Assembly (NCBI GenBank): GCA_030637655.1
Contig: DAOWGI010000034.1
Span: 1 to 55,170, forward strand
Length of the DNA: 55,170 nucleotides
Origin: a candidate division FCPU426 bacterium
GTDB taxonomy: Bacteria; Oederibacteriota; JAAXVQ01; JAUVAV01
Reading direction: 5' to 3'
Shown here piece after piece: positions 17,141 through 54,985 of this stretch. Position numbers and translations under genes: made by a program. The notes beneath the pieces were generated by a model, which saw nothing but the letters and a program-made list of their open reading frames with translations, was not told where the DNA came from and did not search any database. Every line of letters begins with the position of its first letter. Within the stretch, counting starts at the first letter, position 1.

Positions 17141-18258
17141 AGCATCTTTTTCTCCTTTTCCTGATATTCATCCACTTGTCCGTATTTGATCAGAGAACCG
17201 GCCTGCAAGCCGGTACCATTTGATTGCTTAATGATAACGTCGTTTTCTTCCAATCCCAGCTTGATTTCCACATACTCCCTTGAGGCATACCCCAAACTGA
17301 CATCCCGAAGATGCAGGCTTTTATTCTCGCTAACAATATATACTTTGGCGTCACCCTGAATGAGCGCGGTTTTAGGAATAATAATGCTTTGGTTATGATG
17401 GGTAATCACCTGGCAGACAGCAGAGAGTCCAGGTCTCAAGTGGGTTCGATACTCATTAGAAATGCTGATCCGGATCACCGCCATCCGGCTGGTGGTAGTG
17501 ACTTCCGGAGAAAGGCTCATGATCTTCCCTTCTATCTTCAGATTCGGAAAAGCATCCACCTTGACCAGCGCTCTTTGGTTGACCTGGATTTCCTTAACCC
17601 GTCGTTCGGTCACACTGGTTTCAATGAAAAGGTCATCTTCATTACTCACAAAATAGGCGATAGGTACTTGACGATTAACCAATTCACCTTCCAAAACCAG
17701 GCAATCTCCGAGATAGCCGTCTTTAGGAGCAACAATGAAGGTATCATCGTAATCCTTCTTAGCAATGGCCAGCGTCTCTTTGACTTCTTGCACCTCAATT
17801 TTGGAAGCACCGCCCACATCGTACAGCGCGCGGGTGCGTTTGAAATTGATTTTAGCCTGACGATATTTGGCCCGCGAGCGAATATGATTCAGCTCAGCAA
17901 TTACTCTGCCTTTTCCCACAAAATCCCCGGATTTGAAATGATATTTCATGAGGGTTTCCTCTTGGCTGCTTTTCAGCTCAATGGAAGAACCTTTGACCGA
18001 ACCGATCAGTCCCTGCATAACATCTTGAAATAAAACTCTCTTCACCCGAAAAACCTGCGCATAGCGCTGTTTTTCCTTTGCTTGGGCCTGCTGCTCCCAA
18101 GGATTTCCAGACACCGAAACCGACTGTGCATAACGGTGGTGCCAAAGCAGCGCCCCGCTAGCGATAACAATCACACTCAGAGCGGCAATGATATGGATTC
18201 TGTTTCTCGCTAGCCATACATAGCTTTCGGAAAAACGGACAAATCGTAATGTTTTCAT
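17137..18258 (-). CDS. RND periplasmic adaptor (membrane fusion protein)
   Basis: N-terminal TM, lipoyl half-motifs (GDFVGKG...IVAPKDG), LRPGLSA, IPKTAL. 4-bp overlaps with both neighbours. Confidence 0.9.
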   Translation of the reverse strand: MKTLRFVRFSESYVWLARNRIHIIAALSVIVIASGALLWHHRYAQSVSVSGNPWEQQAQAKEKQRYAQVFRVKRVLFQDVMQGLIGSVKGSSIELKSSQEETLMKYHFKSGDFVGKGRVIAELNHIRSRAKYRQAKINFKRTRALYDVGGASKIEVQEVKETLAIAKKDYDDTFIVAPKDGYLGDCLVLEGELVNRQVPIAYFVSNEDDLFIETSVTERRVKEIQVNQRALVKVDAFPNLKIEGKIMSLSPEVTTTSRMAVIRISISNEYRTHLRPGLSAVCQVITHHNQSIIIPKTALIQGDAKVYIVSENKSLHLRDVSLGYASREYVEIKLGLEENDVIIKQSNGTGLQAGSLIKYGQVDEYQEKEKKML

Positions 18259-19763: not shown

Positions 19764-19767
19764 GATC

Positions 19768-19893
19768 TCATCTTCCTCGCATTTGGAATGAACCTGATGT
19801 AAACATGGTTTCAGTCATGGCGGAATATTTCAGTGCCGGCTGAATAGTACGCAAAACTGAAATTGTCAGAGCTGTTATTATTCGCCTACTCAT
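19768..19893 (-). CDS. 41-aa small ORF heading the TolC-RND operon
   Basis: MSRRIITALTISVLRTIQPALKYSAMTETMFTSGSFQMRGR*. Strong RBS (GGGGGAGTGAGGAA). Stop is 4 nt before the tolC ATG. Confidence 0.5.
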   Translation of the reverse strand: MSRRIITALTISVLRTIQPALKYSAMTETMFTSGSFQMRGR

Positions 19894-19933
19894 TTCCTCA
19901 CTCCCCCGTTTAAATATACATACCTATTACACA

Positions 19934-19950
19934 AGCAATTAATATGCCAT
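19934..19950 (-). promoter_or_regulatory. sigma54 -24/-12 promoter (export operon)
   Basis: ATGGCATATTAATTGCT has GG-N10-GC and matches TGGCAC-N5-TTGCW. Confidence 0.8.
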
Positions 19951-20031
19951 TTTTAAACAAAAACGTGTCTGTCAAAACGCTTTGTTTTCAAGAGTTTTTT
20001 TTGTATGGCCGGCAATAAGACGAGTTTATTA

Positions 20032-20067
20032 AAAAATCCTGACCTCTAATCAGAAGTCATAACTTCT
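20032..20067. promoter_or_regulatory. Putative activator enhancer (UAS), tandem sites
   Basis: AGAAGTC-at-AACTTCT at 20052-20067 and a degenerate AAAAATC-ct-GACCTCT at 20032-20047. Confidence 0.65.
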
Positions 20068-20429
20068 GTATAATCGTAACTACTCAGGTTTGCAAGGAGC
20101 AGGGCGGTTTGGTCTTTTTTCAAGCGTGGCAGCGGTAACTGCGGAGATGTGGTTTAGAAAAGCATATCCCCTATTGCTCGTTACCAGCCTGGACCTTGGT
20201 TTTCCGCTTTGCAATGCTTGAAAAAAGACCAAAGTGACCTGCCAGGCGTGAATATTTGAATACATTTTTTTACCCACGAGTAGTTACGTATAATCAGGAC
20301 AATAATGGGGATATTGGTTAAATAGCAAATTCATTTCATTACTGTTCAAATTAATGTTTTCTCTTTCGTTAAAGCGTCCGAAATGCTGATTTTGGCAGGA
20401 AAGCTGATACTGTGTCCACTAATCGGAGG

Positions 20430-20468
20430 AACTGCCCAATGTCCCTAATCACTAATCATTGGGCAGTT
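20430..20468 (-). terminator. Hairpin directly after the 73-aa ORF
   Basis: 12-bp perfect inverted repeat AACTGCCCAATG/CATTGGGCAGTT. No clear U-tract on the minus strand. Confidence 0.35.
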
Positions 20469-20689
20469 TATATGCAGGCGATTTTTCGCCAGATTTGATC
20501 AATGCGGCTGGTGTGATCCACTTTCTCTCCCTTCTCAATCTTGTTGAGCAGTAAGGTGCCGGCCACCACGGCAGCTTCTACTTCCCACTCAATTTCCTGG
20601 GTGTTTTGATACTGGTACTCATCCAAATTCTTTTTAAAGGTCCGCCAAAACGCTGACTGATTCTCTGGAGAAATATTTGAGTAGGTCAT
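20468..20689 (-). CDS. 73-aa hypothetical protein
   Basis: True start is probably MTYSN at 20689 with a GGAGG RBS. The longer track start would span the sigma54 promoter. Confidence 0.7.
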   Translation of the reverse strand: MTYSNISPENQSAFWRTFKKNLDEYQYQNTQEIEWEVEAAVVAGTLLLNKIEKGEKVDHTSRIDQIWRKIACI

Positions 20690-20728
20690 TTCCTCCACCC
20701 CCTTTGATTTGCTTACATACCATATAAC

Positions 20729-20745
20729 TGCAAGGGGGATGCCAA
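20729..20745 (-). promoter_or_regulatory. sigma54 -24/-12 promoter (73-aa ORF)
   Basis: TTGGCATCCCCCTTGCA has GG-N10-GC and is near consensus. Confidence 0.8.
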
Positions 20746-20846
20746 CTTTTAGCAATTTTGAAGTCTGGGATTTTTTTAAAAATAAAGGGTTTTCTGGAAG
20801 GATGTGTCTTGGAAAGACCTTCACGAAAATAAACTGCTTTCTAGAT

Positions 20847-20862
20847 AGAAGTCAAGACTTCT
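20847..20862. promoter_or_regulatory. Putative activator enhancer (UAS)
   Basis: Perfect palindrome AGAAGTC-aa-GACTTCT. Its offset from the -24 GG (104 bp) is the same as for the 20052 site. Confidence 0.7.
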
Positions 20863-20936
20863 ACTCTAAAAGACATATCTAGGAGCTGTTGCGGAAAGAT
20901 TTTTTTTAGGCAATTATGTCATTCCCATCCCCGCTA

Positions 20937-22550
20937 TTATTTTAGCAGCACCACTTGACCTGTCATACGCTTTTCTGAAGATTTGATCTGATAAATATAC
21001 AATCCGCCTTCGCACAGCTGACCGGTCTCGCTCCGTCCATCCCATTCATTCTCATTCACCAATCTGCGAACCAATAGTCCGTTTATGTTCCAGATACTAA
21101 TGATATAGGTGCCGGCTCCATCGCAGTTGAAACCCGCCTTTTGACCCAAAGCTGGTAAAAACGGATTCGGGACCGCAGCACCCGGATACACAGAGGAAAA
21201 TATTTTAACCAATGATATCGGTGTACAGGTAGCCGTGCAAGTAATCGTAGCCGTGCAAGTAATCGTAGCCGTGCAAGTAATCGTAGCCGTGCAAGTAATC
21301 GTAGCCGTGCAAGTAATCGTAGGTGTGCAAGTAATCGTAGGTGTGCAAGTAATCGTAGGTGTGGGAGTAATCGTAGGTGTGCAAGTAATCGTAGGTGTGG
21401 GAGTAGTAACATAATGTTTTGTATAAATTTGAAAAGTGGGACCATTGGATTCCATCCAGGTTATATAGGGTGTCTGCTCCACTATATCTAAAGAAGGATA
21501 AACAGCATCATATCCTTCATCAATATTCAATTCCCCGCCCAATAATATCCAATCACTCCCATTCCATTTTTTGGCATAAATATGACAAATCGTACTGCTG
21601 TCAAATTCATGCCAGGTTACATAAGGTATTTGTCCGGCAACATATAGGCAAGGCATCATCGCAGCCTGGTTGCTGTCTATATTGAGACTTTTTCCCAATG
21701 AAGACCACGCACTACCATTCCATTGTTTGACGTAAATTTGATGATTCGAGTCATCATACTCATACCAAGATACATAGGGAGTATGATCAGAAATGAATAA
21801 GCTGGGAGAATATGCATTCTGAGTGAGTTTGGAATTCAGGGATCCGCCTAGGGAACTCCAAGTACTGCCGTTCCACTGTTTTACAAAGACACAAAAGTTT
21901 GGACTTAAAAATTCATGCCAAGCAACCACCAGCGTAGGATCATCAACATACAAATCAGGACTATATGCATTGTTTCCAGTATTAAGATTCAAACTTCCGC
22001 CTACCAACTCCCATTCGCTCCCATTCCATCGTTTAACATAGATTTGTTTGCTGGTACTACTGGTTTCTTGCCATGATACATAGGGAGTGAGGTTGGAAAT
22101 GTCCAAGCTGGAGCTTCGAGCATCTTCGGCAGAATCCTCATTCAAGCTTCCCCCCATTAATTCCCAGTCACTGCCATTCCATTTTTTGACATAGATTTGA
22201 TCAGCTATACCATTATCTTCTTGCCAGGAAACATAAGGCGTTGCATTTAACAAAGCCAGACTGGGCTCCTTAGCCGATTGACCGGTATTCACATTCAAAC
22301 TTTCGCCGATCAATTCCCAGTCACTGCCATTCCATTTTTTAACATAGATTTGAAATGTATAACTCGAATTGTTTTCATGCCAGACAACAAATGGTGTTTG
22401 ATTGCTGATTTTTATCTGTGGATTATAAGCAGGTTCGTTCGCATCCAGATTCAAACTCCACCCATCCTGAACCCATTCATTCCCCGCTGCTGCTATTGGT
22501 ATTAGAAGCAACGCGATGCCTAATATCGAAGTCTTCATTCGCTTCTGCAA
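20937..22550 (-). CDS. Secreted 7-repeat beta-propeller protein with Thr/Cys linker and FlgD-Ig-like C-terminal domain
   Basis: Signal peptide, then seven ~51-aa repeats (SLN...A..P.L...PYV.W.E...IYVK.WNGS.W), a (TPTITC/TATITC)n linker, and a PNPF...LVRRL...WDGR...GLYIYQI terminus. Confidence 0.85.
   Translation of the reverse strand: MQKRMKTSILGIALLLIPIAAAGNEWVQDGWSLNLDANEPAYNPQIKISNQTPFVVWHENNSSYTFQIYVKKWNGSDWELIGESLNVNTGQSAKEPSLALLNATPYVSWQEDNGIADQIYVKKWNGSDWELMGGSLNEDSAEDARSSSLDISNLTPYVSWQETSSTSKQIYVKRWNGSEWELVGGSLNLNTGNNAYSPDLYVDDPTLVVAWHEFLSPNFCVFVKQWNGSTWSSLGGSLNSKLTQNAYSPSLFISDHTPYVSWYEYDDSNHQIYVKQWNGSAWSSLGKSLNIDSNQAAMMPCLYVAGQIPYVTWHEFDSSTICHIYAKKWNGSDWILLGGELNIDEGYDAVYPSLDIVEQTPYITWMESNGPTFQIYTKHYVTTPTPTITCTPTITPTPTITCTPTITCTPTITCTATITCTATITCTATITCTATITCTATCTPISLVKIFSSVYPGAAVPNPFLPALGQKAGFNCDGAGTYIISIWNINGLLVRRLVNENEWDGRSETGQLCEGGLYIYQIKSSEKRMTGQVVLLK
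21229..21408. repeat. 18-bp coding tandem repeat, about 10 copies
   Basis: gtagccgtgcaagtaatc / gtaggtgtgcaagtaatc units encoding ITCTAT / ITCTPT. Confidence 0.95.
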
Positions 22551-22803
22551 TTGGCTTTTATCCCCTTCTTGGTGTAAAACGGTGCCTGGCTATGCACCAT
22601 TTGATTCATGGCTCACCCTGCAATATCCGGTTCAGGGTGGCACCAATTCATAAATCCTTTCACACCTCACTTGGACCAATTTCTCGCGTTCTGCTGCCAT
22701 TGTCAAATTAATTGTTGTGTGTTATGTAACAGGTCAGTGAAGTGCTGTGTTTTGTCAAATAACCCGGAAACATATGGTCTGCTAATTTTGCTGAATGAGC
22801 TCA

Positions 22804-25800
22804 CTATGGTTTGATAAGACCATTCTTGTCCGCAATACTATATTCCCAGTACTTAAGGCCCAATGGATAGATCTGATTATTTTCAACTGACATCACCCGG
22901 GGCAATCCGAATGAATCAGAAAGAACCATGTTTATGTTTCCTTTTGGAGTAATCACTACTGTTGGCTGATTAAGCCGCTTGGCCAATTCTATTGCCAATT
23001 GATCGCCAAAACTCTTGAAGGATACGCTTTTCAGACCAGTCTTACATGCTGCCAGGCGCAGAGTTCCGCCAGTCCAATGCAAGTCCTCCACCAGAATTCT
23101 CGCCAGAACTTCAGGGTTCACATTGCCCAGACCCTTCAAGCGCACCCATTGGGCCGCGCTTTGCCCGCTCGGCCACACTCCATGCGCGACCAGGGTTACT
23201 TCCTCCACTCCCCTCAAATTGGCCGCATGAATAGACTCCACTTTATATCCAGTCTTGGTTCCCATGGCCTGAGCGGACCTCATAACCAGCTGATCCGAAG
23301 GCTCGCCGTTTAAAATACGCGGTCCCTGATTCTGGGCTGCTGAAACAGTTTGCGATTGTACCTGAGGCTGGTGCGAAAGAGTGGTGTTTTCTAATTTATT
23401 TAATTGCCGCTGGGCTTCCAAGGCCCTGGCCTGGTATTCGCCTGTCTTTTGCAGCAACCGCTGTTTGGCAGGCCCGGCCGGCAAATTTTCAGCCTGAGAA
23501 CGCGTCAGTCGAACTTTTAATTCTAATTTCTGTATTTCGCTTTTAAGGGTCTGGATAGGAGAACCTTCCTCTCCCAAATCAGTCTGACCTTTGGTTTTTG
23601 ATTCCGGCTGATCCCGCAGACTTTTTCCATTTTCTTTAGACCCGGTCTCTTTAGGAGGACCTCGGGTAATCTTTGCATGATTGTGCTTGATTTTTGGCAG
23701 AGCATCTATTTGTGAAGGTCTCCTCTGCAACGGCTGGTTTTGAGGTAATATCCGTTCCTGGGGATTAACTGTCTTGGGCATGAATTTATCTTCCCAAATT
23801 TTATCAGCTATGGCTGGATCATGGATATCCGGCTTGGTATAATCAATCTTCAGGTCTTTGACTGATACGCCTTTTTCCTTGACTATTTCCGGGCTGTACT
23901 CGAAATCAAGGTACCCTGGTCTTTCCGGAACTCCACCATTGGCTTTGGAAATCGCATCCCCTTGGGCTGCTCCGATTGCCCTATGACGTCCTTCATGGAC
24001 AAAAACTTTGCCGGCTTCATTAACTCCAGCCAGAGTTTCGGTAGTATAATTCCGGCCAGACGTGGCCTCGCCCAGGGTCACGGCTTTATCCGCCTTGAAG
24101 CGGATGCGTAAATTATTTTCAGACGTCCGATAAACCACATAAGAATCAGCCTGCTTAACCATTTTACAATTCTCAGGGATCTCCAGGGAACTTTTCATTG
24201 CCTTGGTTAAATTCAGGTTGATTTGAGCCCCTGGCCCGTCACCTGCGAGCCGGCCATTGGGCATAGTCTCGCCTACCTTGTAGTTCACCGGATCAATACT
24301 TTTAATTCCTGCAAGCTTGCGACCCAATGAGAGCTCTGCAGGAGTAAAATTCGAATCGAATATGTCTATTTTTAATTGTTTGCCATGCCTGGGAACCAAA
24401 CGATAGAAGGTCTGGCCATTCTTGGTGACGATCTTCTCAGCAGCTGTGGTCGGATCTACTTTGAAATCAATATACTTCCCGACTTTCTTAGCCCCAGCTT
24501 CCCAGGCATACACACCTTCACCGTATTGAGCTTTGTGGCCTTTGGAAAGATTTAGTGCACCTTCATGCATCACACGAGCTGCACTGGCTTGGGGCATATC
24601 AGCTGTAATCGTATGCCTGAAGACCCGGTTACCGGCTGGTTCAATGGTCCGGCTGACAGCCTGGTTATATTGATCAGCTGCTGTGTTTTTAGCGCGAATC
24701 AAAGCCAATTGATACGGTGCTTTCCCAGTGCGTACATAGTCTTTGAATATATGGCGGACCATGGAAACTTGTTGTTTGTTCAATCCCAGATTACGGCCTT
24801 CTTTCATGATTTGAATATAGCTCTTACCCTTGGACAATTTCACCACATGCCGGGCAATGGATTTGACCTGAGCTTCAGTCAGATGTGCATATTTTTGCTT
24901 GATGGCGTCACGAATGAGCTCAACCCGGACTTTCTCTCTGGCCAAAGAGAATTCGCCCGCTTTCAAACCTGTGCCTTTTAATACCTGGGCTTGGGCTGTT
25001 TTGATCATACTCTTGGTCAGCGTCAAGGTTTTTAGACCGAGTTTGATCCGGACTCCAGGCTGCATTTTAGCAATGTTCATCTGGATGTCAGGCGGCAAGG
25101 ATCTGATCTTGATGCCATCCACAATTCCCTTAACACCTCTGGTAATACCCACCACAACCAATACTGCCAATCCTGTATCCGCCAAACCAGAAGCTGGATC
25201 ATTCATTAGATTCCCAGGAAGCTGGGTGAACATATGCACAAAGCCTTCACCCGTGGTTTTTAAATTCTTAAGTACTGTCCGGCCTGCTCCTTTGCCCCAT
25301 TGCTCCGAGGGTTGAGTAAGGCCTGTTAGAGTGGGGATAAAGAGTACAAACCCAGCCAAACCGCCGGTCAATGCAGTAGCAGCTCTTTCCTCCCAAGTGG
25401 CAATCTTTATAGGATCATGTGCATTAGCGATTTCAGTCCCCAGAATGTATTGATTCTTCAGCATTTCGCGTTCATGCTTATGGTACTCACCGCCCCAGGT
25501 ATCCACCCAGGCCCCCTCATTCTTTTCAGAAACAATTTCGGATCCCACACTACCAATGATGGCGTCTTGTAATCGTAATATAGAATACGAGGCAACCTTT
25601 AACCCACTGGCCAAGGCATCACCCGTATGATCTTTCACAGATCCCACTGGGTAAAAGGTCTCAGCTTTAGTATATGTGCTGTTAGGTCCACCTACTGGAA
25701 TTTGCTTGATGGCAGGCCAACTATTTCCCTGCATATCCTTTAAAGGTCCCAAAGATTCAAGCATCTGTTTCTCAAATCCCATGTCACCAGGATGGGCATA

Positions 25801-46800: not shown

Positions 46801-49800
46801 GGCACGGGTTATGGTGGTTTCTTCGCGTCCAATTTCCTGTCCCAGGCTATTGTAAATAATGTTCTGTACTTGGGTCTGGATCTGGGTTTTGCCAAGTTCC
46901 GGGTCTACAGTAATCTGCGTTTCTTTGTACGATATGAGATTACCCATACTGTTATAAACCATGGCCTGGCGAACCAGGGTTTGCTTGCTTTCAGGCTGGT
47001 CTGAGCGGAATACTGTCTCCTGATATCCCAGCATTTGGCCCCGGGCATTGTAGAGAATATTGGTACGCCTGGTTATGGTCTCTAAATAATATTCAGGCGC
47101 GCTGGGAGCACTTTTTCGAATCACTCTTTCCGTGAAACCGGTCAAATTAGCCATGGGATCATAACGCAAATCCTGCATCCACACTTCAGTCAAAAGATCC
47201 GGGGTTAGCGTGGAAGTACGGGTTTCGTGGTAGGACCTGACTTTATGCGCTTCAGCATAAGCAATGTGGTCGCGCACATAAGTTTCAATCTTATCCAGCT
47301 GACGGCCCTGTTCATCTTGACCATAGGTGTGGACAGTATCAGTGTACCCGATCACCCGGCCCAGAGCGTCGAACTGAGCGTGGTTGCGCACTGTATGCAT
47401 TGTCAAATCCATGACCACTTTAATTACTGTGGCTTGGCCGTCCTGCAAAGAAATTTGAATCTCACCTTCGGGTGTAGAAATGATCACACTCTCACCAGCG
47501 AGGAGTCGGGATTGTTGTTCTTCATCGATTTGATCCCATGTCCATTCCTTTGGCAATTCATCAGGATTTGACCCAAAGCTCAGTAATTTCATGCCAGTCA
47601 GCAGGCCGGCTGCCAGGTTTTCAATATCAGGCAATTCCTGGATACTCTCACCTTTTAGTTGCGTCAACTCATCTTGCGTGGCCATCCGGCCCAAGGAATC
47701 ATAGGTGATATCTTTCACATTTTTTTGGGTAACAAGATCCGGGGTGCGTGAATCTTGGGCGGTTTCTTTGTAGCCCAAGAGCTGGCCATAGCGGTTATAG
47801 CCCAGGCCTGAGCGCTCTACCCGGGTCTTGTTTCCTTGCCCCAGCCAATCGCCTAATAGGGGATTATAAGTAATACTCTCTAATACTTCGGACTTGACTT
47901 GATTGGCCGGCGTAAAGGATTTGGCCTGCCAAATGGTGCGCAGGTGTTCATCATTACCCTGGGTCTGGCAAGATTCCTCGAAATACACCATGCGGCCCAG
48001 TACATCATACTGCATGCTTGAGCGCTGACTGTTTTCAGACAGGTTCAGAGTCATAGACACTAAATGGTTGCCAACATCCAATTGAAGCAGGGCTTGCTCC
48101 TGCCAGGCAACAGCTTGCCCAGCCAGAAGCGCTGTCTGCTGCTCAGCGCTCAACTGCTCCCAGGAAATTCCCATTCCCAGGTTATTCACAATTTCCGCCA
48201 GCTGAGATTGTTGTTCGTCGGCATTCAAATCAGGCCAATTTTCCGGCAAAGTGTATTCACCCTGACTGCTGCGATGAGTCAGGGTTTGAGAAGAAACCAA
48301 TTGGCCCTGACCATTGTAGAGCAGGCCGGTTACTGTACGCAGGCTCACGCTGCCGGTCAAGCCTTGCTCCAATTCAACATAAGCAATTAATTGGCCGCGG
48401 CTGTTAAAGCATGCTTGGCTGCGCTCGCGGATCATGATCCCGGCCGGTGTGGCTTCGTCAAACACTTCTTCAATATACCCGATGGTCTGTCCCCGGGCAT
48501 TGCGCACTATATCATGGCGCGTAGTGATGATGGTGTGATCCAAGCCGGCTGCCAGGCTGCGGCGGATTTCCTGCCTGGAAAACGGCTGGATATCTCTCAC
48601 CTCCAGGCGTTCTTCTAAATCCACCCAAATACCAAAAGGATCTGTACCCAAGGTAGTGGTAATTTGGGTATACTGTTGCACTGCATTGGAAACCAGTATC
48701 ACATTCGCGTACTTTTTTTTGGTCTCAACCAAAACCTGCTGGTTGTCCCGGGTTTGCCCTGCAGTGCGAATGACCTCTTCTCCTCCGCAGACTTCCTGAA
48801 AACGATCATATCTCCTGCCCTTTACTTCAGTTGAAATGAGCACACCCGGATGATCACTTCCTCTGCTCTCCTGCTGATAACCGCTCAACCTTCCAAAGGG
48901 ATCGTAAACTCCATTGTGCCAGTGGGTCTCTATAACCACCTGGTTTAAATCCGTGACCACTTCGTGATAGGAAATACGCTGATGATACTGATTGTAAACT
49001 GCGTCTACTTGCTCGCAACGCGACTCATTGCCGGCGCTGTCGGAAAATGTTTCTTCGACGCTGAGCAACCGGCCCAGGACATCATACTCAGCCTTACGCC
49101 ACTGATGCTTGGCCACGACATTGTCTGCGTATTGCCAGGTCTCTTGGTACTCAATCAAGCGGTCATAAGAATCATACTCGGCCCCTTCCCAAATACGGCT
49201 CACGACTGATTTATCCGGACTAATCACTTCCTCCTGATAGCTGGTAATATTGCCGAAACCATCATACCGGGCAGCCTGCCAATGACGCGTGGACTTTTGG
49301 CCATAGACATCCGTCATTTCCTCCTGAAAGGCGGTCACTAGGCCGAATTTATTGTAGGCAGCCAACCCCGAAGCCTGCAAATCCGCTTGCCAATTAACAC
49401 TGGTTTCATTTCCAAATTGATCCTGACGTATCTCCTGATAACCAGCCAAATGATCTACACCATCATAGGCGGCGTTGAACCACTGACGTTCAGAACGATT
49501 GCCCAGAATATCAATCTTGATTTCGTGATACTCCTGGAGACGATTGTATTGATCATAGCCGCAATTTTGCCAATACCGCCGGCTTTGATTGCCAAAAGGA
49601 TCCGTATTGATTTCACAAAATGAAATGAGCTGATCATAGCGGTTCAATTCCACCTCACCCCAACTCCGGCTGCGCTGATACCCAAAAGCATCTATCGTAT
49701 GTTCTGTGTAAGCAAGCAACCGTCCGAATTGGTCGTACGCCGCCTTTTCCCGGCAGAGAGAGGATTTCAGCCCATGGACATCGGTGTTATGATCCTGATA

Positions 49801-51174
49801 GCTCAGGATATCTCCCACTTGGTTGTAGGTGATGGCACAACGTTCAGTACGGCTTGTCTTGCCAAAGGCATTCACTCTGGTCTCTTGAAATCCCAGCAAG
49901 CGATGCTTATGACTGTACTGCGCCTGGTCAAATATGACGCTGGTACAAGTACCGTCAATATGTGTTGTTTCCTCCTGGGAGTGCAGCAAGCGGCCATACT
50001 TATCATAGCGTCCTTGGCTCCAGGCAACCTGTTTTTCCCGGCCTAATGCGTCCCTATGTTTTTCCAGGTAACTCAGCAATTGGCCGTATTGATCATAGCT
50101 TCCCTGTTGCCATTCCCTCACAGACTGATTTCCAAGCGCATCTGTGATTCTTTCGGTGTACGCTGTTAATAAATACTCTGTGGCAATTTGTGCTTCCCCG
50201 CGTTTTTCTTTGGCCTTGCTGTAAGCAGGATTCTTAATATACCGGGCACCCAACCAATGCCGCTGCGTGCGATTCTGTTGGGCGCCAATCACTGTCTCTT
50301 GATATTCCTGCAGTTGTTTATTCTCATCGTAGCGGGCTCCATACCAATGCTTAACATTTTTATTGCCCCGTTCATTGGTAAAGATCTCATCATACTGGAC
50401 CAATAATTTCCCCTCGTACCGGCCGTTGGACCATTCTGACTTGGTCTTGTTCCCAAAGGCATCCGTGCTCTCCTGCACATAACTGGTTACCAATTTATTG
50501 GCGTTGGTATCATCATTGGCGTAAAAAACCGAGTCTTTGGTATAGGTGGCGCCGGACCACTTGACATGGGTAAGATTGCCCAGGGAATCCAATGTGTCCG
50601 CTTCATAGCTGGTCAGCAACCGCTTGCTATTGTATTCCAGGTTATAGGTATTTTTAAGAGAGACATTTCCCTGCGGGTCAATAATTTTTTCATTCTCAAT
50701 AAGCACTGCCAAGCCGTCTTGAAACCAGATGCATTTGCCGTCGTCATATTGGACATAGTTGAATTTGGCATTCTGGCCTGTGATGGCAAATATCTTCTGC
50801 TTGGCCATTTGCAGGGAGCGTTCCATTTGCTTCACGCTTTGTTGTTGCTCCAACACTCCCTGCTCGATGTTCTGTCTGTTTTTGCCGGTCAGTTTCCCTT
50901 GCTGGTACGACAAAGATTCTTCTTTGCGGTTTTGATAGTCAACTATTGCCTGCTGCTTTTCCATTTGTTCTTTGATATAGACCGGACTGAAATATCCGGT
51001 CTTTTTGCGATCTTGAAAAGCCCGCACCTTGACATTAGCAGACGATTTGACATAGGCCGCAATCGCTTCTGTTGCCGGCGCCACAGTTCCGGTATAACCC
51101 ATCACAGCGGATAGTACCATGGCCATACTTTTACGCAGAAAACGCCTGGTTGGTTGTGTTAGTTTTATTCGCAT
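22804..51174 (-). CDS. Giant (~9,456 aa) secreted YD-like repeat protein with candidate C-terminal toxin/effector domains
   Basis: Uninterrupted 28.4-kb ORF. Start MRIKL at 51174 with an AAGGGGG RBS. Signal-peptide-like N-terminus, very many Y(D/N)xxG(R/Q)xxxYxE repeats, hydrophobic segments, terminal LVAHG...LAACKTG domain. Confidence 0.9.
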   Translation of the reverse strand: MRIKLTQPTRRFLRKSMAMVLSAVMGYTGTVAPATEAIAAYVKSSANVKVRAFQDRKKTGYFSPVYIKEQMEKQQAIVDYQNRKEESLSYQQGKLTGKNRQNIEQGVLEQQQSVKQMERSLQMAKQKIFAITGQNAKFNYVQYDDGKCIWFQDGLAVLIENEKIIDPQGNVSLKNTYNLEYNSKRLLTSYEADTLDSLGNLTHVKWSGATYTKDSVFYANDDTNANKLVTSYVQESTDAFGNKTKSEWSNGRYEGKLLVQYDEIFTNERGNKNVKHWYGARYDENKQLQEYQETVIGAQQNRTQRHWLGARYIKNPAYSKAKEKRGEAQIATEYLLTAYTERITDALGNQSVREWQQGSYDQYGQLLSYLEKHRDALGREKQVAWSQGRYDKYGRLLHSQEETTHIDGTCTSVIFDQAQYSHKHRLLGFQETRVNAFGKTSRTERCAITYNQVGDILSYQDHNTDVHGLKSSLCREKAAYDQFGRLLAYTEHTIDAFGYQRSRSWGEVELNRYDQLISFCEINTDPFGNQSRRYWQNCGYDQYNRLQEYHEIKIDILGNRSERQWFNAAYDGVDHLAGYQEIRQDQFGNETSVNWQADLQASGLAAYNKFGLVTAFQEEMTDVYGQKSTRHWQAARYDGFGNITSYQEEVISPDKSVVSRIWEGAEYDSYDRLIEYQETWQYADNVVAKHQWRKAEYDVLGRLLSVEETFSDSAGNESRCEQVDAVYNQYHQRISYHEVVTDLNQVVIETHWHNGVYDPFGRLSGYQQESRGSDHPGVLISTEVKGRRYDRFQEVCGGEEVIRTAGQTRDNQQVLVETKKKYANVILVSNAVQQYTQITTTLGTDPFGIWVDLEERLEVRDIQPFSRQEIRRSLAAGLDHTIITTRHDIVRNARGQTIGYIEEVFDEATPAGIMIRERSQACFNSRGQLIAYVELEQGLTGSVSLRTVTGLLYNGQGQLVSSQTLTHRSSQGEYTLPENWPDLNADEQQSQLAEIVNNLGMGISWEQLSAEQQTALLAGQAVAWQEQALLQLDVGNHLVSMTLNLSENSQRSSMQYDVLGRMVYFEESCQTQGNDEHLRTIWQAKSFTPANQVKSEVLESITYNPLLGDWLGQGNKTRVERSGLGYNRYGQLLGYKETAQDSRTPDLVTQKNVKDITYDSLGRMATQDELTQLKGESIQELPDIENLAAGLLTGMKLLSFGSNPDELPKEWTWDQIDEEQQSRLLAGESVIISTPEGEIQISLQDGQATVIKVVMDLTMHTVRNHAQFDALGRVIGYTDTVHTYGQDEQGRQLDKIETYVRDHIAYAEAHKVRSYHETRTSTLTPDLLTEVWMQDLRYDPMANLTGFTERVIRKSAPSAPEYYLETITRRTNILYNARGQMLGYQETVFRSDQPESKQTLVRQAMVYNSMGNLISYKETQITVDPELGKTQIQTQVQNIIYNSLGQEIGREETTITRAWNLLQELILEQVRKTQISDVLYNGLNQKIFSMEKHETEGNAAVTTVIFGRATYNLLGQLEGFRQITRNQAEKDSGNLNHTQRLERTQTGYNTLGQVTETTEIINSSDAPAKTVTEHTSEITYTPAGLKYSYSKQIREISTGSLPLDITTLITRKATTYCNGLATAYEEETLKRGTWTNPDNGEIEVLAEFTNVKRKDIVCSAGRQVLAYHEDNSGNGIAGGSKTVDWQGAYDLQGRNTQSQEIVDDGVMVSTTTREVAEFDELGRALSESQSVNSRSHVLDAEQKPLQNITTKVNRLDLQYDDQGRLLGYQEQSQSSERPGVLNTIQRLYATYDQLGRQNAYQEKIVSVGFDETGSIAPDLFTEKLITRAYTSYNGLSRVLEYEDEILYSDRDVGETITRSDVSYDDVGRVKTYYEKIREQDTQGKELDRVTETWREATEYADARGRLTQYIEKRISSDQPELEKTITWTATDFDQADRVKDYTQQTVVNNIKGAEYSLITTLKRSDIQYDQQNREIKYSQNEYSTDAPDLVIHTDRTLTKYNNFGQVIAFEEKVERYDAQNPRNMRISTQVSRSDIQYNLSGWENSYHEESVSSQAPNLITTTDWSQAVYNRLGQIEQFQQKVRQQGKDEEGNALGVVITTTRTVTEYNDQGQVTAQIEELASSAQSQVTTTETLSDVTYNGRGQRETYNKTITKVSEDGKLFQKTSIEREQTAYDAFGRELSYTENRNSSDAPDVNTEINWIALDFDGLGRVSAYQEDVTRIGRKAAGAEVLQTVVSTLRTNILYQDQGHLLSYQEEVDSTAEGHISRDWQVLHYNLLGQLTGYQETGHKPDRGNYTYLWEASFDEFGQVDSLHENLQTDNGSMDYDQHRAGTTYNNKGQVIGCTETGWTVNQPSYTKIWDASFEEAYTLSGQQQHYQEVFTNDLGVTTEKEWSQAEYNALGQLIRYVERLRETAAGVRDMQIIRTWEAHYDDAYNMAGQLAHYEETKTTEYYNPQTGELLESIPSRVIWQAGEYIAGLIQEFTEQTIHYLGLPEEYTSTYTRLDMDYDASGHLQAYFETGNGPATGQYEKNWQVLGFDANGREMGYVTNGYSQASGVNNNLMRENIVYDSHGRILAYHEKGIADGKYIDRQWSSEPENYDVLGRILAFTENGWNESGRYEKSQSKIVYNHLSCLKSYVENGWNITEGNYVKIVSNLTYDEKGRRLSYHQVLEQEDQEKITTTDWQVISPQGYNDKGQLLGYTETSTVHDPAGVLQEEVSIEWLADFKDSYTDLGQLLRFISTTQKISPDFGTRTVIQKRSHSRFQADGRLQSYHEAITNKIENEGLTQESTIASIRSGIEYYGQTENSPDEGETWSNQIPPNGSQPPATDELWRHEGMIAAYQELILGTNAEEKPVQHIFQAVNFDQDGRQLGYLEVNADEDLAAGILRRFSEWLSEVQNGFPVALTEEWILQTLEIANLLVFDTLGIIRKIQNWMAENISGFTDEIRNIVTNLLSTISNLLFQTADAFDNLLAELTTNLTLSPFVSFVENLSMAVETRLIASLQTTLPAWTAADTAYAKLHPFDYTVTITQRRDTVYDELNRPIAWQEETRSSAAPDKITISDVNVTYEGKTQRYATYAARLVEGEKITHLYRNDYAYNPLDQAVAYKETVFEGDILEINGVETDWRTLAIADRSRLINNLVDEVQEVKELVTINCYENVTYNAIQQMTGYDLTTHRRGFTFQAFSEAAIMAESLTQQQEMIEKQEEVVAEQQALFQQAQDAWQAAYSNLAVPYFGSDLPDRNDPAAVMQEITLRLQAKFVDEATQENNVDAAREALDAAFQFLNDKTSALVEAVNALAIVENQWRQAIHQQDQLITDIKNWAGTDYANLHTAIDNLKTYYQVYASADYAQAAADLESIRSTITNVLGNWDAGNVGAPWPDTLGIGMDSIDAFLTEESSVQTLMQQALDLKDALALFCDSCQTIAENIDQQIGWLDGGQPALAGGLCDQFDQALVAKGIAKNEYNTAVGIRNAAQGEADSLLAKLNNLNNAWTSISGQLDDEVDVVKSLVNAFETESQNVADNLCDISYADWVGPNGTYSYSGATMRRYDVTSTVMSQYDDTPAWGIHYTWLVFPNCPNQSELDHTHHDFSTYYYSESYVVKPKSIFNGKPSEFDKRNIVEPIIQDYRDAKSALDREVQDKYDPLKDKVHTLLELTTNEINALAGLLADDYKIQVQALYTTKEQQKYQAYVDQLNTIPPLQTVVDQKFNEWQSAISVHLAAKTALDVAITVCQDAYDSLNLITSLKDRALANYEGDLGIAVTGTELLDTANTETTAKDRYLQARIEHDDAYNQVHGVSGKKPLYDQAVTDLLNAGQDRQAGQDILETMVSVQKGIQAAQADLQIEIEMLRQINQDSQELSIRISEELFGNAFLLDGQGFNLTAQQAQTLSQGKAINLGEDYDLARLSQQAEIKVNAGQNLTASRRNITYEKRGLLDRYQEISFTGTQVRVKAKTGDDWQVIEWLDLAEEQKQEVLQQEPEALMVEILGSGSLKITEAQNHAHDARGRMTGNQVIVHETRYQDTEKVKRTYTVTTKDMDYDNQGNMSKYIRTKAEGIRTIVESTLQALQYDEFDRLIESHLLIEETVGHVDTSKEIHTTGMKYNHLDQMTGFVRETCENAKWIFEKTLSAMRYNLQNQVEFSDMLILETRESEGLTAGDFAVMADRAAAQEAFGEQGKVTRVITRDMQYDARGQAISLFRTIIDNEKRTEEDVREMVYNGERLIHSKSKVQETGFPAANGETHLYYRSYEIEIDNLEYDQSEQVTRQRKLTRDGNKVTTEDLTMEYEDPEGRMTYAFNSISEKYGDLPVHQYTVETTIHSYNDENQVARQTRIIVDGRKQITESNQDTLATTVFAYYAGRRQRREIQVIEASLGNPPDANPYTKVYKLTEENMVYDSLGQLLYCRRIRETHDQGTTNYVQEETTYTYNTRGQLRESAMVRTSHSGDIAEGKTNTMVTRIPLSGYDDSNQMERFSNIIFQGDTLGYRGEERRWQELSEADKDNLTHGRFKETLNKSVAVNSMGQVKYDDHGRLQDWIGTMRVLGPVTTALGELLEATFAGKSFGPEGAAEQIIRQNKIEAFDRTLGLGTILVANGGASMEIAAKALSDNEKIGLIDLAGLNLDATDQVVLNGSEYNLTACSIRLPIDATSVTVRKDTQYNTLGQVSDYKEFTFAGKGLVLNGKYTVWDALSESRQQELIGIWELAGQEEWIEMDAAYADDLPNNFVTLVHMQNIRYSGQGDRETWKQTEQELQLYLKDSLRPDSETGNIRLAVNRNSGTERLETALRDINGEKKEIGIHQINTSSNGLETEEWIFFKYDDKGRASELLKLRWRANEEQWVAEYTEVLDYKQVSNRDVFGMIATTTGFDVSLTQGLLDSSLSQADFQGFANALFDRPDFREAGQTLAYQESTNARVETDLMEFRYELDGTNPRTSQTIRIHTDAKNISTVEDTYYYYAYKGDSKPTYTRSIKANQPAYSVETYLENPDDADSERKRIAYNPPTTLVGAENRPVQSIEDASLLYDSRGILKSSDVIRLDVGGVMTRELTKFTYDYGRVKHSDKKIWQDIGGSFEQPDLTTERPDDVEGLPIDFKVYAGGGQMFREETDYTYTGSEVTHSEIKRTEISGQVVREINDFEYNTSTGELISSVNKVYEGDFYWKQTSRENMQYYAAGTADAGFLESYTETITASATCEGIINHKRTVNNVTQVEYDNLGRLESRHTTVTNYTVIAGQTKSAAYSMTLQAGAIVAGTIYEGYDWMGRMANYTQTITKGSKTTTESIHQVFSQADGRLDGMYRFIHEEGGNLDHTYQRNSQYGYSAGTQLPAREITTTTDNHRTTRENITYLAYNEQQQLEKKRDLINVYDQTDLLYSYNVDTTYTSYNKQGLPDEYTTLTIRGGKKTEQKITASYNEHDQVIGQTSANKEVLAGVSEMDYCREWTEALTNVAYNDLGQQIEFTQTRTERDKQITETCTDLDYNEVGQITHKVSDFVEKDVPANGGEYYRAYTLTMDNHAYNDLGQVLRYSRTMEHKDETDKVVKISTETCLADIQYAAEERVLLTNVEIKEKDHGFILDGTELDYTYTLRTENEYDSATGQVSGYTRTHTRGDKETKEKAVFLTYDRYGRLAYSNVTVHEQDVTKTLPLNKKYSVITAYNDYNLLDQARSYTKISQENQGQHEVIEQASGLTYDLRGNLTHSLVQRDENGTAGTVETENGYNDLDQAITVKRVSIQDDLVTIEQNVGGTKLEYSQDNQMEASSLAYRQIDLATAQTHDFNVLSTDTMGAEVNQYYTVDSSEMTYNSIGQLIEYLRVTTDANKTTTEETLEDCDYDSAGQLVYSKTEWTESGNSTYGNLDHTYIVTMENMVYNSQGKMEDYQQTTEDASKTTIEMVSGMLYDQGRLVHKYSEITEQGDVGTGALNHTYTLDTTNTEFDNYGRIRAYTQTTLDAGRTLVETVSDQQYDSQNRLQQYVKDTLDGGKLIHEETLTDIQYEELGRIQQINMSRSIKDQKTKGSELSLYSETLTENLLFDQLGRVTEYRLTTDEYTKTHPSTGPPTNKTKTVVEHATSVAYNDLHQITETQTSYTETSTQPSETIQPEECPQAVEINGLGKTYSVTTINRKFTFLGKVAQMTRTTTHGNHVIEEYSLVDQTYDDYNRVQAFSNRITESGGNLDSQYTLIHSIDEFNELDQILRETKVIAKQDITITETSLLDNEYDTSNRLIWSKKQITETGGLFNLNHVYKQVTEVKEYNSLGQARQREIKKYDDNGAINKITTVNQNSMVYNSLGQLFSYNQTLHDTDWTQGALDTKFIINRAWTLYNSLGQPESYYEYHRKDASQAESYADLNPTEYTLYQAVGGQPVVNVSIQDVLSSPDMPGLAGKRIYEILYNLLEPAIADALADEGYTGISLADALLDVMSALLGYFSENSITFSGIDNEEIPLRYLTPADILYLLIGDSWGAYETAVVADEQVLDIFTLTITGLASIDAEVRDTVGTGGRILLNLTLQDVLTEILKQAFLNFPGKPAALDEAAAQNLAAGLLAGDTFLDSLGNNLLDLTLQEIYDLHLANTDYATEDEVSPVMISFGTLIQKLIFQQPDESDMRVIFSQVFGSTLSGFQDSTNTLNLGVITFGDMLKHVFDPSAADLTTAVSNRLLAIFSNYAEFVTVWYQVDNIKYDELGRVVRMEEQRKWNQAGGGNLPGLDSGWRNAIAYVTTEKEYVGDSDLIETQAVRATHETGIHSDLGNNPDINLGYIQTDIVYDQYGRELESRSFSSQLAKYEFQWLDPTHFLWWETSSSMGEPEDVITIVGTITYTSTSSFNQLGQPTNVLTEYRRDDGNRTEGMELSQNITYHRNGSRRDAWTYTTVVMSLPKHDNAQWYNYDWQTTLDWMSTWTLENSAGLTFANHSQNQYRAMNRDSNQWTHPSHGLTEYAYDAYGNMDAEGTKDKSDITHVSTQPEGVGMTVFGEILYWTMTLGEIVVSVIGTIFPIFKPFAILINFGSNLVKNYIAGMDFSTSLGLAALNAGVSIVGFGIGEIAANISNAILQVVVQVASSIALSVTNQLIQTAILKGDEGDYGEAALRGLLYGAAGALMQSNIGMVTKMILVTAINVGAAMASGVKDGRQLLLVAAISIGMVAFTESNPATGPPRESNNTQLPTWQDITRIFVSALVAMALATLLEEMGLGFTGQLAAALVMQVALKITSTIVKDVNTSQSTMAQQRQTLAQLNQISQAFNAGLKQGLSMNIKKHHEINIFIYKTGKGAKPVEQQIKEQKEAMEEAAEGQMYFEQFVLEAVVDYSSAVMDLTMDIFAYGYDLFQNVFADNTPNVLDNQDNQNLIMASASGNLNMRITARGEAQAGEGGALLFSEKENREKLSSAQRNAIIESLITAKSELDTLSKAEINEMGNFLTKQGIDFDAVINAEVNGQEMALFFKDDILVAAGMLGAGGQKEIRTFNFRFGEDGKVLVAAGKIFRHIDGKYREVGSFRYAAKNSKEYQQAMSRTEEIIQNSAALEKIKSADAIYTEKDTVGKMTRQVYLKVDDQGNALALASEHRTNDGQMQLLTYEYDNLEEGVLAKGRIFEMNDGSYGEKAAGQFSIQNIQGLAQLSGVGQQVVQALQAGGMSRVVYQAQMEMGASREVSMNKETGQLEYVYEKKNGKQRLVMFAENAGAALRDRPDIAGVQVVNFNDLGKDEQTQILASLPVMDKRDPAALTAKLVRMQENLMQAKLQKFAEAQGFKLEVEDSQIFMQLPGNKNLQVLRLGEDKGENLVIEGRLVMQDEDGMKAIGAEVFLAGADSKFAGELLCATELDTGKLPGGSTLMATVNEKETQVVVLNANQQVIAGTQHTVASQVLNQAVYNLKSQSKQGNGSLPGYLNTGLASIAALANQAGSAITGLIDEVINVRVVEEHKLDDGSVLKGKISLNQDGSIQEIAPGTIKQVSFAENQVSEDGKLWKAQLFEWDGEQFILIEGVRVEQKVGNYEVLGESGVDVYMIVSPEGQEFVVGVNWGSLSEGVQIKEMTSGLILEKKGGSFKLAGNQKGTIQYDDQQITIDLNAKGQMQQPAGIKVFLDGKERNFKLLALEANLASGGWQLKGQVILKDREKLNVAQAAVWLSREPTAGATQQKGSAKAGYEPATQAHMYQKQDGDYVFFGGKVGMVINTEIQEDQSQMMKNHQVAFGKGSHLTITGKTGLPALKIKVFVGQLRNTRNGWQWGSGTIYQRGQEIKLAAGKNGEFKVKQIKGEGFKAVIHELSMLANLLVTLKKGITIDLSIDYKNGKADLVDGRYHGNFVTGNRNIQLHGKDAIAEVENLSLLVKDNSVAVNFIQFGIYEGETLMLGEMGLRQNGCQKSISIIFNENGSIADLTLPTGIMTKSQDGTLMVWVYDGQGKYPAVIINDKGVYDQYGFEKLPTIISEKTNSGRVETRSGEKYTLELPTEESAGLIEMLKQDGRVLMGQDGVYAHPGDMGFEKQMLESLGPLKDMQGNSWPAIKQIPVGGPNSTYTKAETFYPVGSVKDHTGDALASGLKVASYSILRLQDAIIGSVGSEIVSEKNEGAWVDTWGGEYHKHEREMLKNQYILGTEIANAHDPIKIATWEERAATALTGGLAGFVLFIPTLTGLTQPSEQWGKGAGRTVLKNLKTTGEGFVHMFTQLPGNLMNDPASGLADTGLAVLVVVGITRGVKGIVDGIKIRSLPPDIQMNIAKMQPGVRIKLGLKTLTLTKSMIKTAQAQVLKGTGLKAGEFSLAREKVRVELIRDAIKQKYAHLTEAQVKSIARHVVKLSKGKSYIQIMKEGRNLGLNKQQVSMVRHIFKDYVRTGKAPYQLALIRAKNTAADQYNQAVSRTIEPAGNRVFRHTITADMPQASAARVMHEGALNLSKGHKAQYGEGVYAWEAGAKKVGKYIDFKVDPTTAAEKIVTKNGQTFYRLVPRHGKQLKIDIFDSNFTPAELSLGRKLAGIKSIDPVNYKVGETMPNGRLAGDGPGAQINLNLTKAMKSSLEIPENCKMVKQADSYVVYRTSENNLRIRFKADKAVTLGEATSGRNYTTETLAGVNEAGKVFVHEGRHRAIGAAQGDAISKANGGVPERPGYLDFEYSPEIVKEKGVSVKDLKIDYTKPDIHDPAIADKIWEDKFMPKTVNPQERILPQNQPLQRRPSQIDALPKIKHNHAKITRGPPKETGSKENGKSLRDQPESKTKGQTDLGEEGSPIQTLKSEIQKLELKVRLTRSQAENLPAGPAKQRLLQKTGEYQARALEAQRQLNKLENTTLSHQPQVQSQTVSAAQNQGPRILNGEPSDQLVMRSAQAMGTKTGYKVESIHAANLRGVEEVTLVAHGVWPSGQSAAQWVRLKGLGNVNPEVLARILVEDLHWTGGTLRLAACKTGLKSVSFKSFGDQLAIELAKRLNQPTVVITPKGNINMVLSDSFGLPRVMSVENNQIYPLGLKYWEYSIADKNGLIKP
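42158..42187. repeat. Perfect 30-bp GTAG-type palindrome inside the giant CDS
   Basis: TGTAGAGACGCGATTAATCGCGTCTCTACA is its own reverse complement. It reads VETRLIASLQ in frame. Confidence 0.9.
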
Positions 51175-51197
51175 GAGACCCCCCTTGGAATCCATAA

Positions 51198-51563
51198 CTA
51201 TAGGATTGCAGGATTAAGAATTTCTGTGATCAAATTCATATCATACGGTTTCTTAATAAACCGTTTGGCTTGATACTTTTTCATCAAATGCACAACTTCC
51301 TCAGTGTATTCCCAGTGAATCAGGATTGCGACTGTCTCCAGCTCCCTACACGCATTGAATTGATCTATTTCCTCTTGCCCATTTTTAATGGTTTCCACAT
51401 CAATAAAAATAAATTTAAAATGATGACTGCAGAGGACATTAGCTAAAAGGTCGTGCTGCGTGCTTAAAAATACTCTGTTGAATCCACACATATTCAAATT
51501 TTCTTTCAGTATTTCTGCAAAAACCAGGTTTATGTCTAGAATCAAAATATTCTCATTCAACAT
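51198..51563 (-). CDS. Stand-alone atypical receiver (REC) domain protein
   Basis: ILILD...FIFID...ILIH...FIKKPY receiver pattern. ATG 51563 has an AGAGG RBS. The track start (51620) lies inside the sigma54 promoter. Confidence 0.75.
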   Translation of the reverse strand: MLNENILILDINLVFAEILKENLNMCGFNRVFLSTQHDLLANVLCSHHFKFIFIDVETIKNGQEEIDQFNACRELETVAILIHWEYTEEVVHLMKKYQAKRFIKKPYDMNLITEILNPAIL

Positions 51564-51603
51564 CACATTACCTCTGTAGCTAGATTTCCTTATACGTAGG
51601 AAA

Positions 51604-51620
51604 AGCACAATTCGTGCCAA
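51604..51620 (-). promoter_or_regulatory. sigma54 -24/-12 promoter (REC gene plus giant gene)
   Basis: TTGGCACGAATTGTGCT has a perfect -24 box and GG-N10-GC. Confidence 0.8.
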
Positions 51621-51680
51621 ATATTTTTTTTAAAATTGGGGGTTTTGCGTTACTTTCAGGTGCAATGAGAGGAATTAATC

Positions 51681-51716
51681 AGAAGTCCGGGATTATAATA
51701 AGAAGCAGAGACTTTT
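51681..51716. promoter_or_regulatory. Putative tandem UAS sites
   Basis: AGAAGTC-cg-GGATTAT (51681) and AGAAGCA-ga-GACTTTT (51701), 20 bp apart. TAATCAGAAGTC at 51676 is identical to the 12-mer at 20047. Confidence 0.55.
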
Positions 51717-54832: not shown

Positions 54833-54867
54833 AATAGTAGCCCCCTTTGTGAAAACGGCGCTCTAAT

Positions 54868-54912
54868 AAAAAGCCCGAGCCTCCGCTCACTATAATGAGC
54901 GACAGCCCAGGC
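54868..54912 (-). terminator. Riboswitch expression-platform terminator
   Basis: GCCTGGGC-tgt-CGCTCA-ttatag-TGAGCG-gag-GCTCGGGC-TTTTT. The 5' arm overlaps the aptamer 3' end. Confidence 0.8.
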
Positions 54913-54978: not shown

Positions 54979-54985
54979 TAAGTAA

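Follow-up and report, generated by a model that had tools for sequence, protein, structure and literature searches.

NtrC at glnAp2, DctD, AtoC and ZraR are two-component sigma-54 activators with tandem dyad sites. The window analysed here is a whole stretch of 55,170 nt, contig DAOWGI010000034.1 (C20 in our numbering) of a metagenome-assembled genome of a candidate division FCPU426 bacterium (GCA_030637655.1, hereafter G000; 3.28 Mb, 92% complete, 45% G+C). It contains three sigma-54-like promoters, here P1, P2 and P3, which share the upstream palindrome AGAAGTC-N2-GACTTCT, and a gene for one NtrC-type response regulator. We consider it probable, at roughly 0.6, that the window holds a small sigma-54 regulon and that the palindromes are the upstream activating sequence of this local activator. 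The likeness to the NtrC type covers both partners: the activator joins a receiver to an AAA+ domain and a divergent, putatively Fis-type helix-turn-helix (HTH), and the DNA has two dyads on one helical face, ∼100–140 bp upstream of a GG-N10-GC promoter, with an A/T-rich region, or one of the integration host factor (IHF) type, between. The window differs in the site itself, AGAAGTC-N2-GACTTCT, and in its targets, which are unrelated to nitrogen or carboxylate metabolism. Its activator differs as well, as it belongs to a divergent clade, carries a GAFSGA loop, an NE Walker B motif and an HTH insertion, and has no adjacent kinase gene. The mechanism itself is textbook, an ordinary kind of bacterial gene control. 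The finding provides a testable cis-element and a putative regulator in an organism for which metagenomes are the only source, and the palindrome and activator could serve as a reporter pair in a laboratory host.

Three further systems resemble parts of the locus. The E. coli mdtABCD-baeSR cluster encodes an adaptor and two different resistance-nodulation-division (RND) subunits, and the regulator gene thought to activate the cluster stands at its end; BaeR belongs to the OmpR type of sigma-70 activators, and its kinase is encoded next to it. The efflux cluster behind P1 likewise ends in its presumed regulator gene, but that gene encodes a sigma-54 activator, there is no kinase gene with it and the outer-membrane channel gene comes first. 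In Desulfovibrio vulgaris Hildenborough, comparative genomics yielded local activator regulons, with, for example, an AT-rich palindrome predicted for DVU2275 (PMC4641369). As in that study, a palindrome common to the upstream regions of nearby sigma-54 promoters is what links them to an activator here; the phylum and the motif are different, and the footprint in the window draws on family-level paralogous cassettes and one 56% orthologue. In Pseudomonas syringae, HrpRS drives the sigma-54 promoter of hrpL (PMC8999054). Paralogous cassettes in the family of our bacterium similarly appear to have an activator driving a sigma-54 promoter before an extracytoplasmic function (ECF) sigma gene. In contrast to the hrpL system, the cassettes of these relatives have a gene for a single-domain receiver ahead of the sigma gene, and their targets are large proteins of the FG-GAP, NHL or type IX-tailed kinds rather than a type III system; the cassette in the window has no ECF sigma gene. 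A word search of the literature (not a sequence search) turned up no publication that describes this motif or cassette.

Three promoters with a shared palindrome

All genes and promoter elements concerned lie on the minus strand. P1 (TGGCATATTAATTGCT, 19949–19934, intergenic), P2 (TGGCATCCCCCTTGCA, 20744–20729) and P3 (TGGCACGAATTGTGCT, 51619–51604) each match TGGCAC-N5-TTGCW at 10 of 11 positions. The initial annotation had placed GG-N10-GC promoters at 19934, 20729 and 51604, with the −12 C lying 42, 41 and 42 nt from the next ATG, and both the promoters and the distances were reproduced from the sequence: the −12 C falls at 19935, 20730 and 51605 and the start codons at 19893, 20689 and 51563. 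At P3 an ATG at 51568 comes first but is out of frame and is followed directly by TGA, so that the annotated in-frame ATG at 51563 is the right choice. A strong GGAGG-type ribosome-binding site precedes each of the three start codons (GGGGGTGGAGG at P2). Transcription is predicted to start ∼12 nt after the GC, near 19923, 20718 and 51593. The presence of rpoN in the genome, left by the annotation to be confirmed, is now established by a 494-aa frame on contig C15 with a Sigma54_DBD match of 211 bits. On the gene strand, the intergenic regions of the window contain no further promoter-like site at ≥8/11; the 3.28-Mb genome contains, on both strands, 84 sites at ≥10/11.

Upstream of each promoter we scored sites against AGAAGTC-N2-GACTTCT over 14 positions, giving site starts as plus-strand coordinates. 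P1 has a distal site (AGAAGTTATGACTTCT, 20052–20067) that matches at 13/14, begins 118 nt 5′ of the T of TGGCA and contains a perfect CAGAAGT-N4-ACTTCTG dyad, and a proximal weak site (AGAGGTCAGGATTTTT, 20032–20047; 11/14) whose centre lies 20 bp away. At P2 the distal site (AGAAGTCTTGACTTCT, 20847–20862) is a perfect dyad at 14/14, also 118 nt 5′ of that T; the proximal position (20827–20842) has only a left half, AGAAAGC, at 5/7, the right half being 2/7 as read by eye. P3 has two weak sites of 11/14, a distal one (AAAAGTCTCTGCTTCT, 51701–51716) 97 nt 5′ of the T of TGGCA and a proximal one (ATAATCCCGGACTTCT, 51681–51696) with a perfect right half and with GACTTCTGATTA in common with P1; in an alignment of the three regions the distal one falls on the palindromes of P1 and P2. 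The sites therefore begin 118 and 98 nt (P1), 118 nt (P2), and 97 and 77 nt (P3) before TGGCA. Measured from the first G of the GG, the starts at 20052/20032, 20847 and 51701/51681 lie at 104/84, 104 and 83/63 bp, which are the distances first annotated.

The half-sites follow one another as left, 2 nt, right, 4 nt, left, 2 nt, right, with dyad centres 20 bp apart. If transcription starts ∼12 nt after the GC, these centres lie at about −136 and −116 for P1 and P2 and at about −115 and −95 for P3. The 21-bp difference between P1/P2 and P3 agrees with the two helical turns that the annotation had estimated, and it means that the sites stay on the same face of the helix. Judged from the sequence, this tandem-dyad layout is that of an enhancer-binding-protein site; such sites are dyad-symmetric, frequently occur in tandem on a single helical face and lie ∼80–150 bp upstream. 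Between enhancer and promoter, P2 has an A/T-rich tract (AAAACCC...ATTTTTAAAAAAAT, 20770–20793, minus strand) in conserved alignment columns, with a counterpart at P3 (AAAACCCCCAATTTTAAAAAAAAT, 51623–51646, minus strand); the tract lies 69–70 nt from the distal site at both promoters. It is a possible bend or IHF/HU site, and the genome encodes four members of the HU/IHF family.

The strong sites are the best in the genome. A scan of all 3.28 Mb for the palindrome returned one site at 14/14, one at 13/14, three at 12/14 and 66 at 11/14. The first two of these are the strong sites at P2 and P1, respectively, and the weak sites of the window are three of the 66, each exactly 20 bp from its partner. 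The three 12/14 sites (on contigs C34, C63 and C98) lie within coding sequence with no promoter nearby. A 28-position tandem model gave scores of 24, 22 and 21 for the three upstream regions (the composite 21/28 of P2 comes from three half-sites); it gave another 21 inside a gene on C63 and at most 19 elsewhere. Both searches thus speak against the motif being common at random positions. The genome-wide scan for the palindrome beside −24/−12 boxes, which had been proposed along with the promoters, found a palindrome of ≥11/14 within 125 nt upstream at only three of the 84 promoter-like sites, all three being those of the window. At C57:17389 a real-looking promoter stands before the gene of a secreted protein; 156 nt upstream of it is a poor 11/14 match, which we left as doubtful. 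The negative result for a fourth site refers to an assembly that is 92% complete.

Searched for worldwide, the combination of palindrome and promoter turned up in three Nitrospirota genomes, in each case in the orthologous gspE/gspF intergenic region. These matches represent one evolutionary event, against an estimated ∼0.25 chance hits, and so we do not count them as support. On all three contigs the palindrome, AGAAGTTTAAACTTCT, precedes a sigma-54 promoter by ∼100 nt, and both stand between a gspE-like and a gspF-like gene in a pilus/secretion (pseudopilin) cluster. The palindrome is identical in all three though its flanks have diverged, and there is no activator gene within 4 kb of these loci.

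The local activator and its relatives

The candidate binder is encoded at 8832–10247 (minus strand) and combines a receiver, an AAA+ sigma-54 interaction domain and a divergent Fis-type HTH. Pfam recognizes Sigma54_activat (E 5.4e-57), Response_reg (5.5e-19, residues 5–120) and the AAA lid. The receiver has the acidic pair DD at residues 8–9, D52 and the lysine of FEVKP, while the sigma-54 contact loop, GAFSGA, is a conservative variant of GAFTGA. The HTH aligns with that of the paralogues with a one-residue insertion. The genome encodes ten sigma-54 activators, and this is the only one on the contig.

Support for pairing this activator with the palindrome comes from relatives. We compared 14 other genomes of the order; the family comprises 11 genomes, and a search of the phylum covered 99. 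The first gene behind P3 encodes a divergent receiver-like protein (described below) whose homologues are confined to this bacterial family, with six strong copies (E 2.8e-42 to 2.1e-49) in five of the 11 genomes; the remaining matches in the phylum are ordinary receiver domains of larger proteins, at E 6e-9 or weaker. All five copies outside the window, which belong to sister genera, lie 199–510 nt downstream of a paralogue of the activator on the same strand. Four of them have a GG-N10-GC promoter 50–123 nt before the start codon and the fifth, in G006, has GG-N10-GA. Together with the three promoters of the window and that of a further cassette on contig C60 of the same genome, the relatives' five make nine clade promoters. 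All nine have a palindrome with 7-nt arms (≤1 mismatch) that starts 98–123 nt upstream of TGGCA, and seven of the palindromes are perfect, as compared with 0.17 perfect ones per shuffled 200 nt. The palindromes vary among paralogues (TGTAAGC-TTT-GCTTACA in G006, CTTACA-CCC-TGTAAG in G003, GGAAGCA-TT-TGCTTCC at G004:C91, AGAAGTA-AA-TACTTCC in G002 and TTCACAC-A-GTGTGAA on C60), as one would expect of activators with a separate site each.

The closest orthologue of the activator (56% identity) is encoded at G004:C110. A perfect 7-2-7 dyad, AAAAGCC-GC-GGCTTTT, lies there 108 nt upstream of TGGCATCATTCCTGCA and agrees with the window consensus at 10 of 14 positions. A receiver-like gene (38%) comes next downstream, and after it a gene whose product is homologous to the 537-aa protein of the window (37–41%). 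The insertion in the HTH recognition region (NNYQQL/KNYQQL) occurs only in the window activator and in this orthologue. Metagenome scans with the channel protein behind P1 and with the activator found no closer relative.

The initial annotation had claimed that the palindrome is the binding site of the local activator and defines its regulon. The layout supports an enhancer-binding-protein site, and the assignment to this activator is backed indirectly, by the cassette pairing in relatives and by the G004 orthologue; the word 'defines' is justified only to the extent that the 92%-complete assembly yielded no convincing fourth site.

The most serious competitor to this assignment accepts promoters and palindrome as functional and gives the palindrome to another binder, one of the nine other activators or a repressor, while the local activator serves other targets. 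A genome with ten activator genes offers such candidates, and the activators on contigs C35, C89 and C36 have no obvious sigma-54 promoter nearby. The local gene is far from P3 and lacks an adjacent kinase gene. In G008, moreover, the channel orthologue is not on the contig that carries the activator orthologue and its kinase. Against another binder stand the pairing of activator and receiver-like gene in five of five copies in relatives, and the combination, in the G004 orthologue, of a related 7-2-7 dyad with the shared HTH insertion. Six of the nine other activators, on C60, C15, C64, C108, C39 and C57, also have a sigma-54-like promoter of their own within a few kb, and the palindrome at C60, the sole one of these that was read, differs. 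We therefore regard another binder as rather unlikely.

Several observations weigh against the local activator as binder or against a functional enhancer, and they are collected here. The distance from the activator gene is 9.7 kb to P1 and 41 kb to P3, while activator and target adjoin each other in relatives; nine other activators are encoded in the genome; and neither the gene list nor Pfam reveals a histidine kinase gene beside the activator or anywhere in the window. The HTH_8 match of the activator (E 0.001, 19.2 bits) is below the Pfam cut-off of 22. Its Walker B motif reads FLNE, with NE rather than DE; as four of nine aligned clade members have NE, we take this for a trait of the clade rather than decay, and it is probably tolerated. 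Three of the five sites are weak, at a score of 11/14 that is met 66 times in the genome. The window alone contains five matches at ≤3 mismatches where 1.67 are expected, and four of 100 shuffles reach five, so that the count is weak by itself and the improbable part is the placement of the sites. None of the 14 other genomes of the order contains the motif in exact form, apart from two chance-like hits, one inside an activator gene in G005 and the other in G014. In G008 the gene for the channel orthologue (50%) lacks a sigma-54 promoter, which means that P1 is not conserved. Lastly, the P1 and P2 regions fold as RNA (−13.6 and −12.0 kcal/mol, z −2.6 and −2.0) and have U-rich tails, a point taken up in the next section.

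A kinase gene stands beside the activator in the 49% orthologue (G008) and in three paralogue cassettes (G006, G003 and G004:C91). In G000, a stand-alone histidine kinase is encoded at C49:2671–3411 (minus strand), and ∼400 nt read downstream of it contain no activator gene. It is the best match in the genome to the kinases beside the activator orthologue and paralogues in G008 and G006, which makes it a candidate partner of the window activator.

If the local activator is the binder, a kinase encoded elsewhere, for which C49 is the candidate, would phosphorylate its receiver, and activator dimers on the tandem sites would build an active AAA+ ring. The DNA would then loop, and ATP hydrolysis would open the sigma-54 closed complex ∼12 nt downstream of the GC. 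Transcription from P1 could possibly run on into the activator gene and produce feedback. One activator would in this way switch on a 9463-aa protein, a secreted repeat protein, an orphan peptide and RND efflux together. Taken together these outputs suggest that the cell would remodel its surface in a concerted manner, as would be expected if sigma-54 is a controller of the bacterial exterior, a proposal made in PMC3162934.

The family also shows a repeated gene arrangement: a kinase in some copies, a sigma-54 activator, a palindrome and promoter, an atypical single-domain receiver, an ECF sigma factor and large proteins. It is seen at G006:C2, G002:C12, G003:C206 and G004:C91, and also at G000:C60:7642–10150, where a kinase gene was seen, the receiver is missing and the promoter stands directly before an ECF-like sigma gene. 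The large proteins are of FG-GAP, NHL or type IX-tailed kinds. We conjecture, quite tentatively, that the family may use a repeated and undescribed cassette, with a palindrome of its own in each case and very large secreted proteins at its end, of which the window would be a rewired version that has lost its ECF tier and its kinase gene. One dispersed activator would then directly co-ordinate three outputs: the 9463-aa protein, whose giant relatives elsewhere carry a polymorphic-toxin domain at their end, a multidrug-type efflux pump and the orphan peptide. The receiver, once induced, might serve as a sink for phosphate and so turn the system off.

Hairpins and a possible promoter duplication

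The strong palindromes could alternatively be mainly intrinsic terminators of the co-directional genes upstream, namely the P3 operon before P2 and a 73-aa gene before P1, with closeness to promoters a result of tight gene packing. The RNA folds listed above fit this explanation. At P1, the right half of the distal site and the left half of the proximal one make a hairpin followed by a T-run, which was flagged as terminator-like, and the palindromes of relatives lie just past the activator stop codon. Terminators need not share sequence, however, and P1 and P2 have an identical core (12/12) that occurs nowhere else in the genome and stands at the same 118-nt distance. The P3 region has the same half-site array and does not fold (−2.8 kcal/mol, z 0.15). 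The perfect dyad would leave a loop of only 2 nt, and tandem phasing at 20 bp is a feature of protein binding. Termination as the main role is in our judgement improbable, though the palindromes may possibly have a dual role as terminator and enhancer.

The three upstream regions were also compared with one another. Aligned without gaps, the spacers of P1 and P2 are identical at 40 of 102 positions, where shuffles give 28.6 ± 4.3 and 0.7% of them reach 40. The spacers are thus nearly random, and the shared elements stand out from a diverged background rather than from a recent copy. Common to P1 and P2 are the dyad, the next left half-site, AAAAC(C/T)C with the A/T tract, the −24/−12 boxes and the ribosome-binding site. 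In a three-way alignment P3 has the same elements with ∼21–22 nt fewer beside the promoter, its upstream elements being displaced by two helical turns relative to P1 and P2. That the three regions are leftovers of promoter duplication, with a palindrome inherited without present function, has in its favour the equal spacing at P1 and P2, their similar ribosome-binding sites and a spacer identity slightly above chance (40/102), but is very improbable, since the spacers are near random while the dyads match at 13–14 of 14, the half-site array of P3 is kept at another distance two helical turns away, and common descent does not account for dyad symmetry.

Genes behind the promoters and their setting

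From high to low coordinates, the window begins with pyruvate formate-lyase and its activating enzyme, followed by the P3 genes, P2, the 73-aa gene, a ∼200-bp repeat element, P1 and the efflux operon. A gap of 196 nt then separates the efflux operon from the activator gene at 8832–10247, which is followed by rpoB and rpoC.

The first gene of P3 (51198–51563, minus strand) encodes a divergent single-domain receiver of 121 aa. The window copy matches Response_reg below the cut-off, and four of six members of the family match it at E up to 0.01. A profile matches Spo0F/CheY-type structures, and D55, the phospho-acceptor, and K105-P106 are invariant. The second gene (22804–51195, minus strand) is a single open frame for a protein of 9463 aa. 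Neither half of this protein matches a Pfam family, and BLAST at E 1e-5 detects no internal repeats; its N-terminal segment is hydrophobic. Giant metagenome homologues of 5382–7855 aa are ∼25% identical to it, and three of five of these have Ntox10, a polymorphic-toxin domain family for which the window protein has no match. Several further giant open frames occur in the genome. A third gene (20937–22550, minus strand), probably the last of the P3 operon, encodes a secreted repeat protein of 537 aa with a signal peptide, about eight repeats of ∼52 aa and a TPTIT linker. A weak match to CHU_C at residues 482–527 (E 0.0011, below the cut-off) suggests a probable type IX secretion tail.

P2 precedes an orphan gene of 73 aa (20468–20689, minus strand). 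The protein has no Pfam match, no relative but itself in 5.8 billion clusters and none in the 14 genomes of the order.

The P1 operon (10444–19893, minus strand) consists of a small open reading frame (ORF; 19768–19893), a TolC-like channel (18255–19763), an adaptor (17137–18258) and two RND pumps (13940–17140 and 10444–13971). Pfam identifies OEP in the channel, HlyD_D23 in the adaptor and ACR_tran twice in the pumps, and the genes abut or overlap. In gene content the operon resembles a double-RND efflux system. The small ORF (minus strand) has 41 codons and a strong ribosome-binding site, and ends 4 nt before the ATG of the channel. A split-off signal peptide of the channel was considered and rejected, as the channel has its own signal peptide. 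In G008 an ORF of 97 codons (C77, 1118–1410) occupies the same place and starts similarly (MSRIL.. versus MSRRI..), so that the small ORF may be a decaying or leader-type gene.

The repeat element is a miniature inverted-repeat transposable element (MITE) of ∼200 bp (20076–20270, copy boundaries at 20074–20076 and 20270) that lies outside the enhancer. More than 20 copies occur in the genome at 87–95% identity, with terminal inverted repeats GTAACTACTCAGG... and the target duplication GTATAATC. It inserted 8 bp from the P1 palindrome and left the palindrome untouched. An Rfam search of 19700–21000 yielded nothing beyond a microRNA hit on the MITE at E 0.2, which is at chance level. A look for RNA runs of this DNA found none; DNA contigs from four runs have the same sequence as the window around P1 and P2, so that there is no strain variation to use. 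At the other end of the window (54833–55170, minus strand), the pyruvate formate-lyase gene has a long, GC-rich leader that contains hairpin-like stretches.

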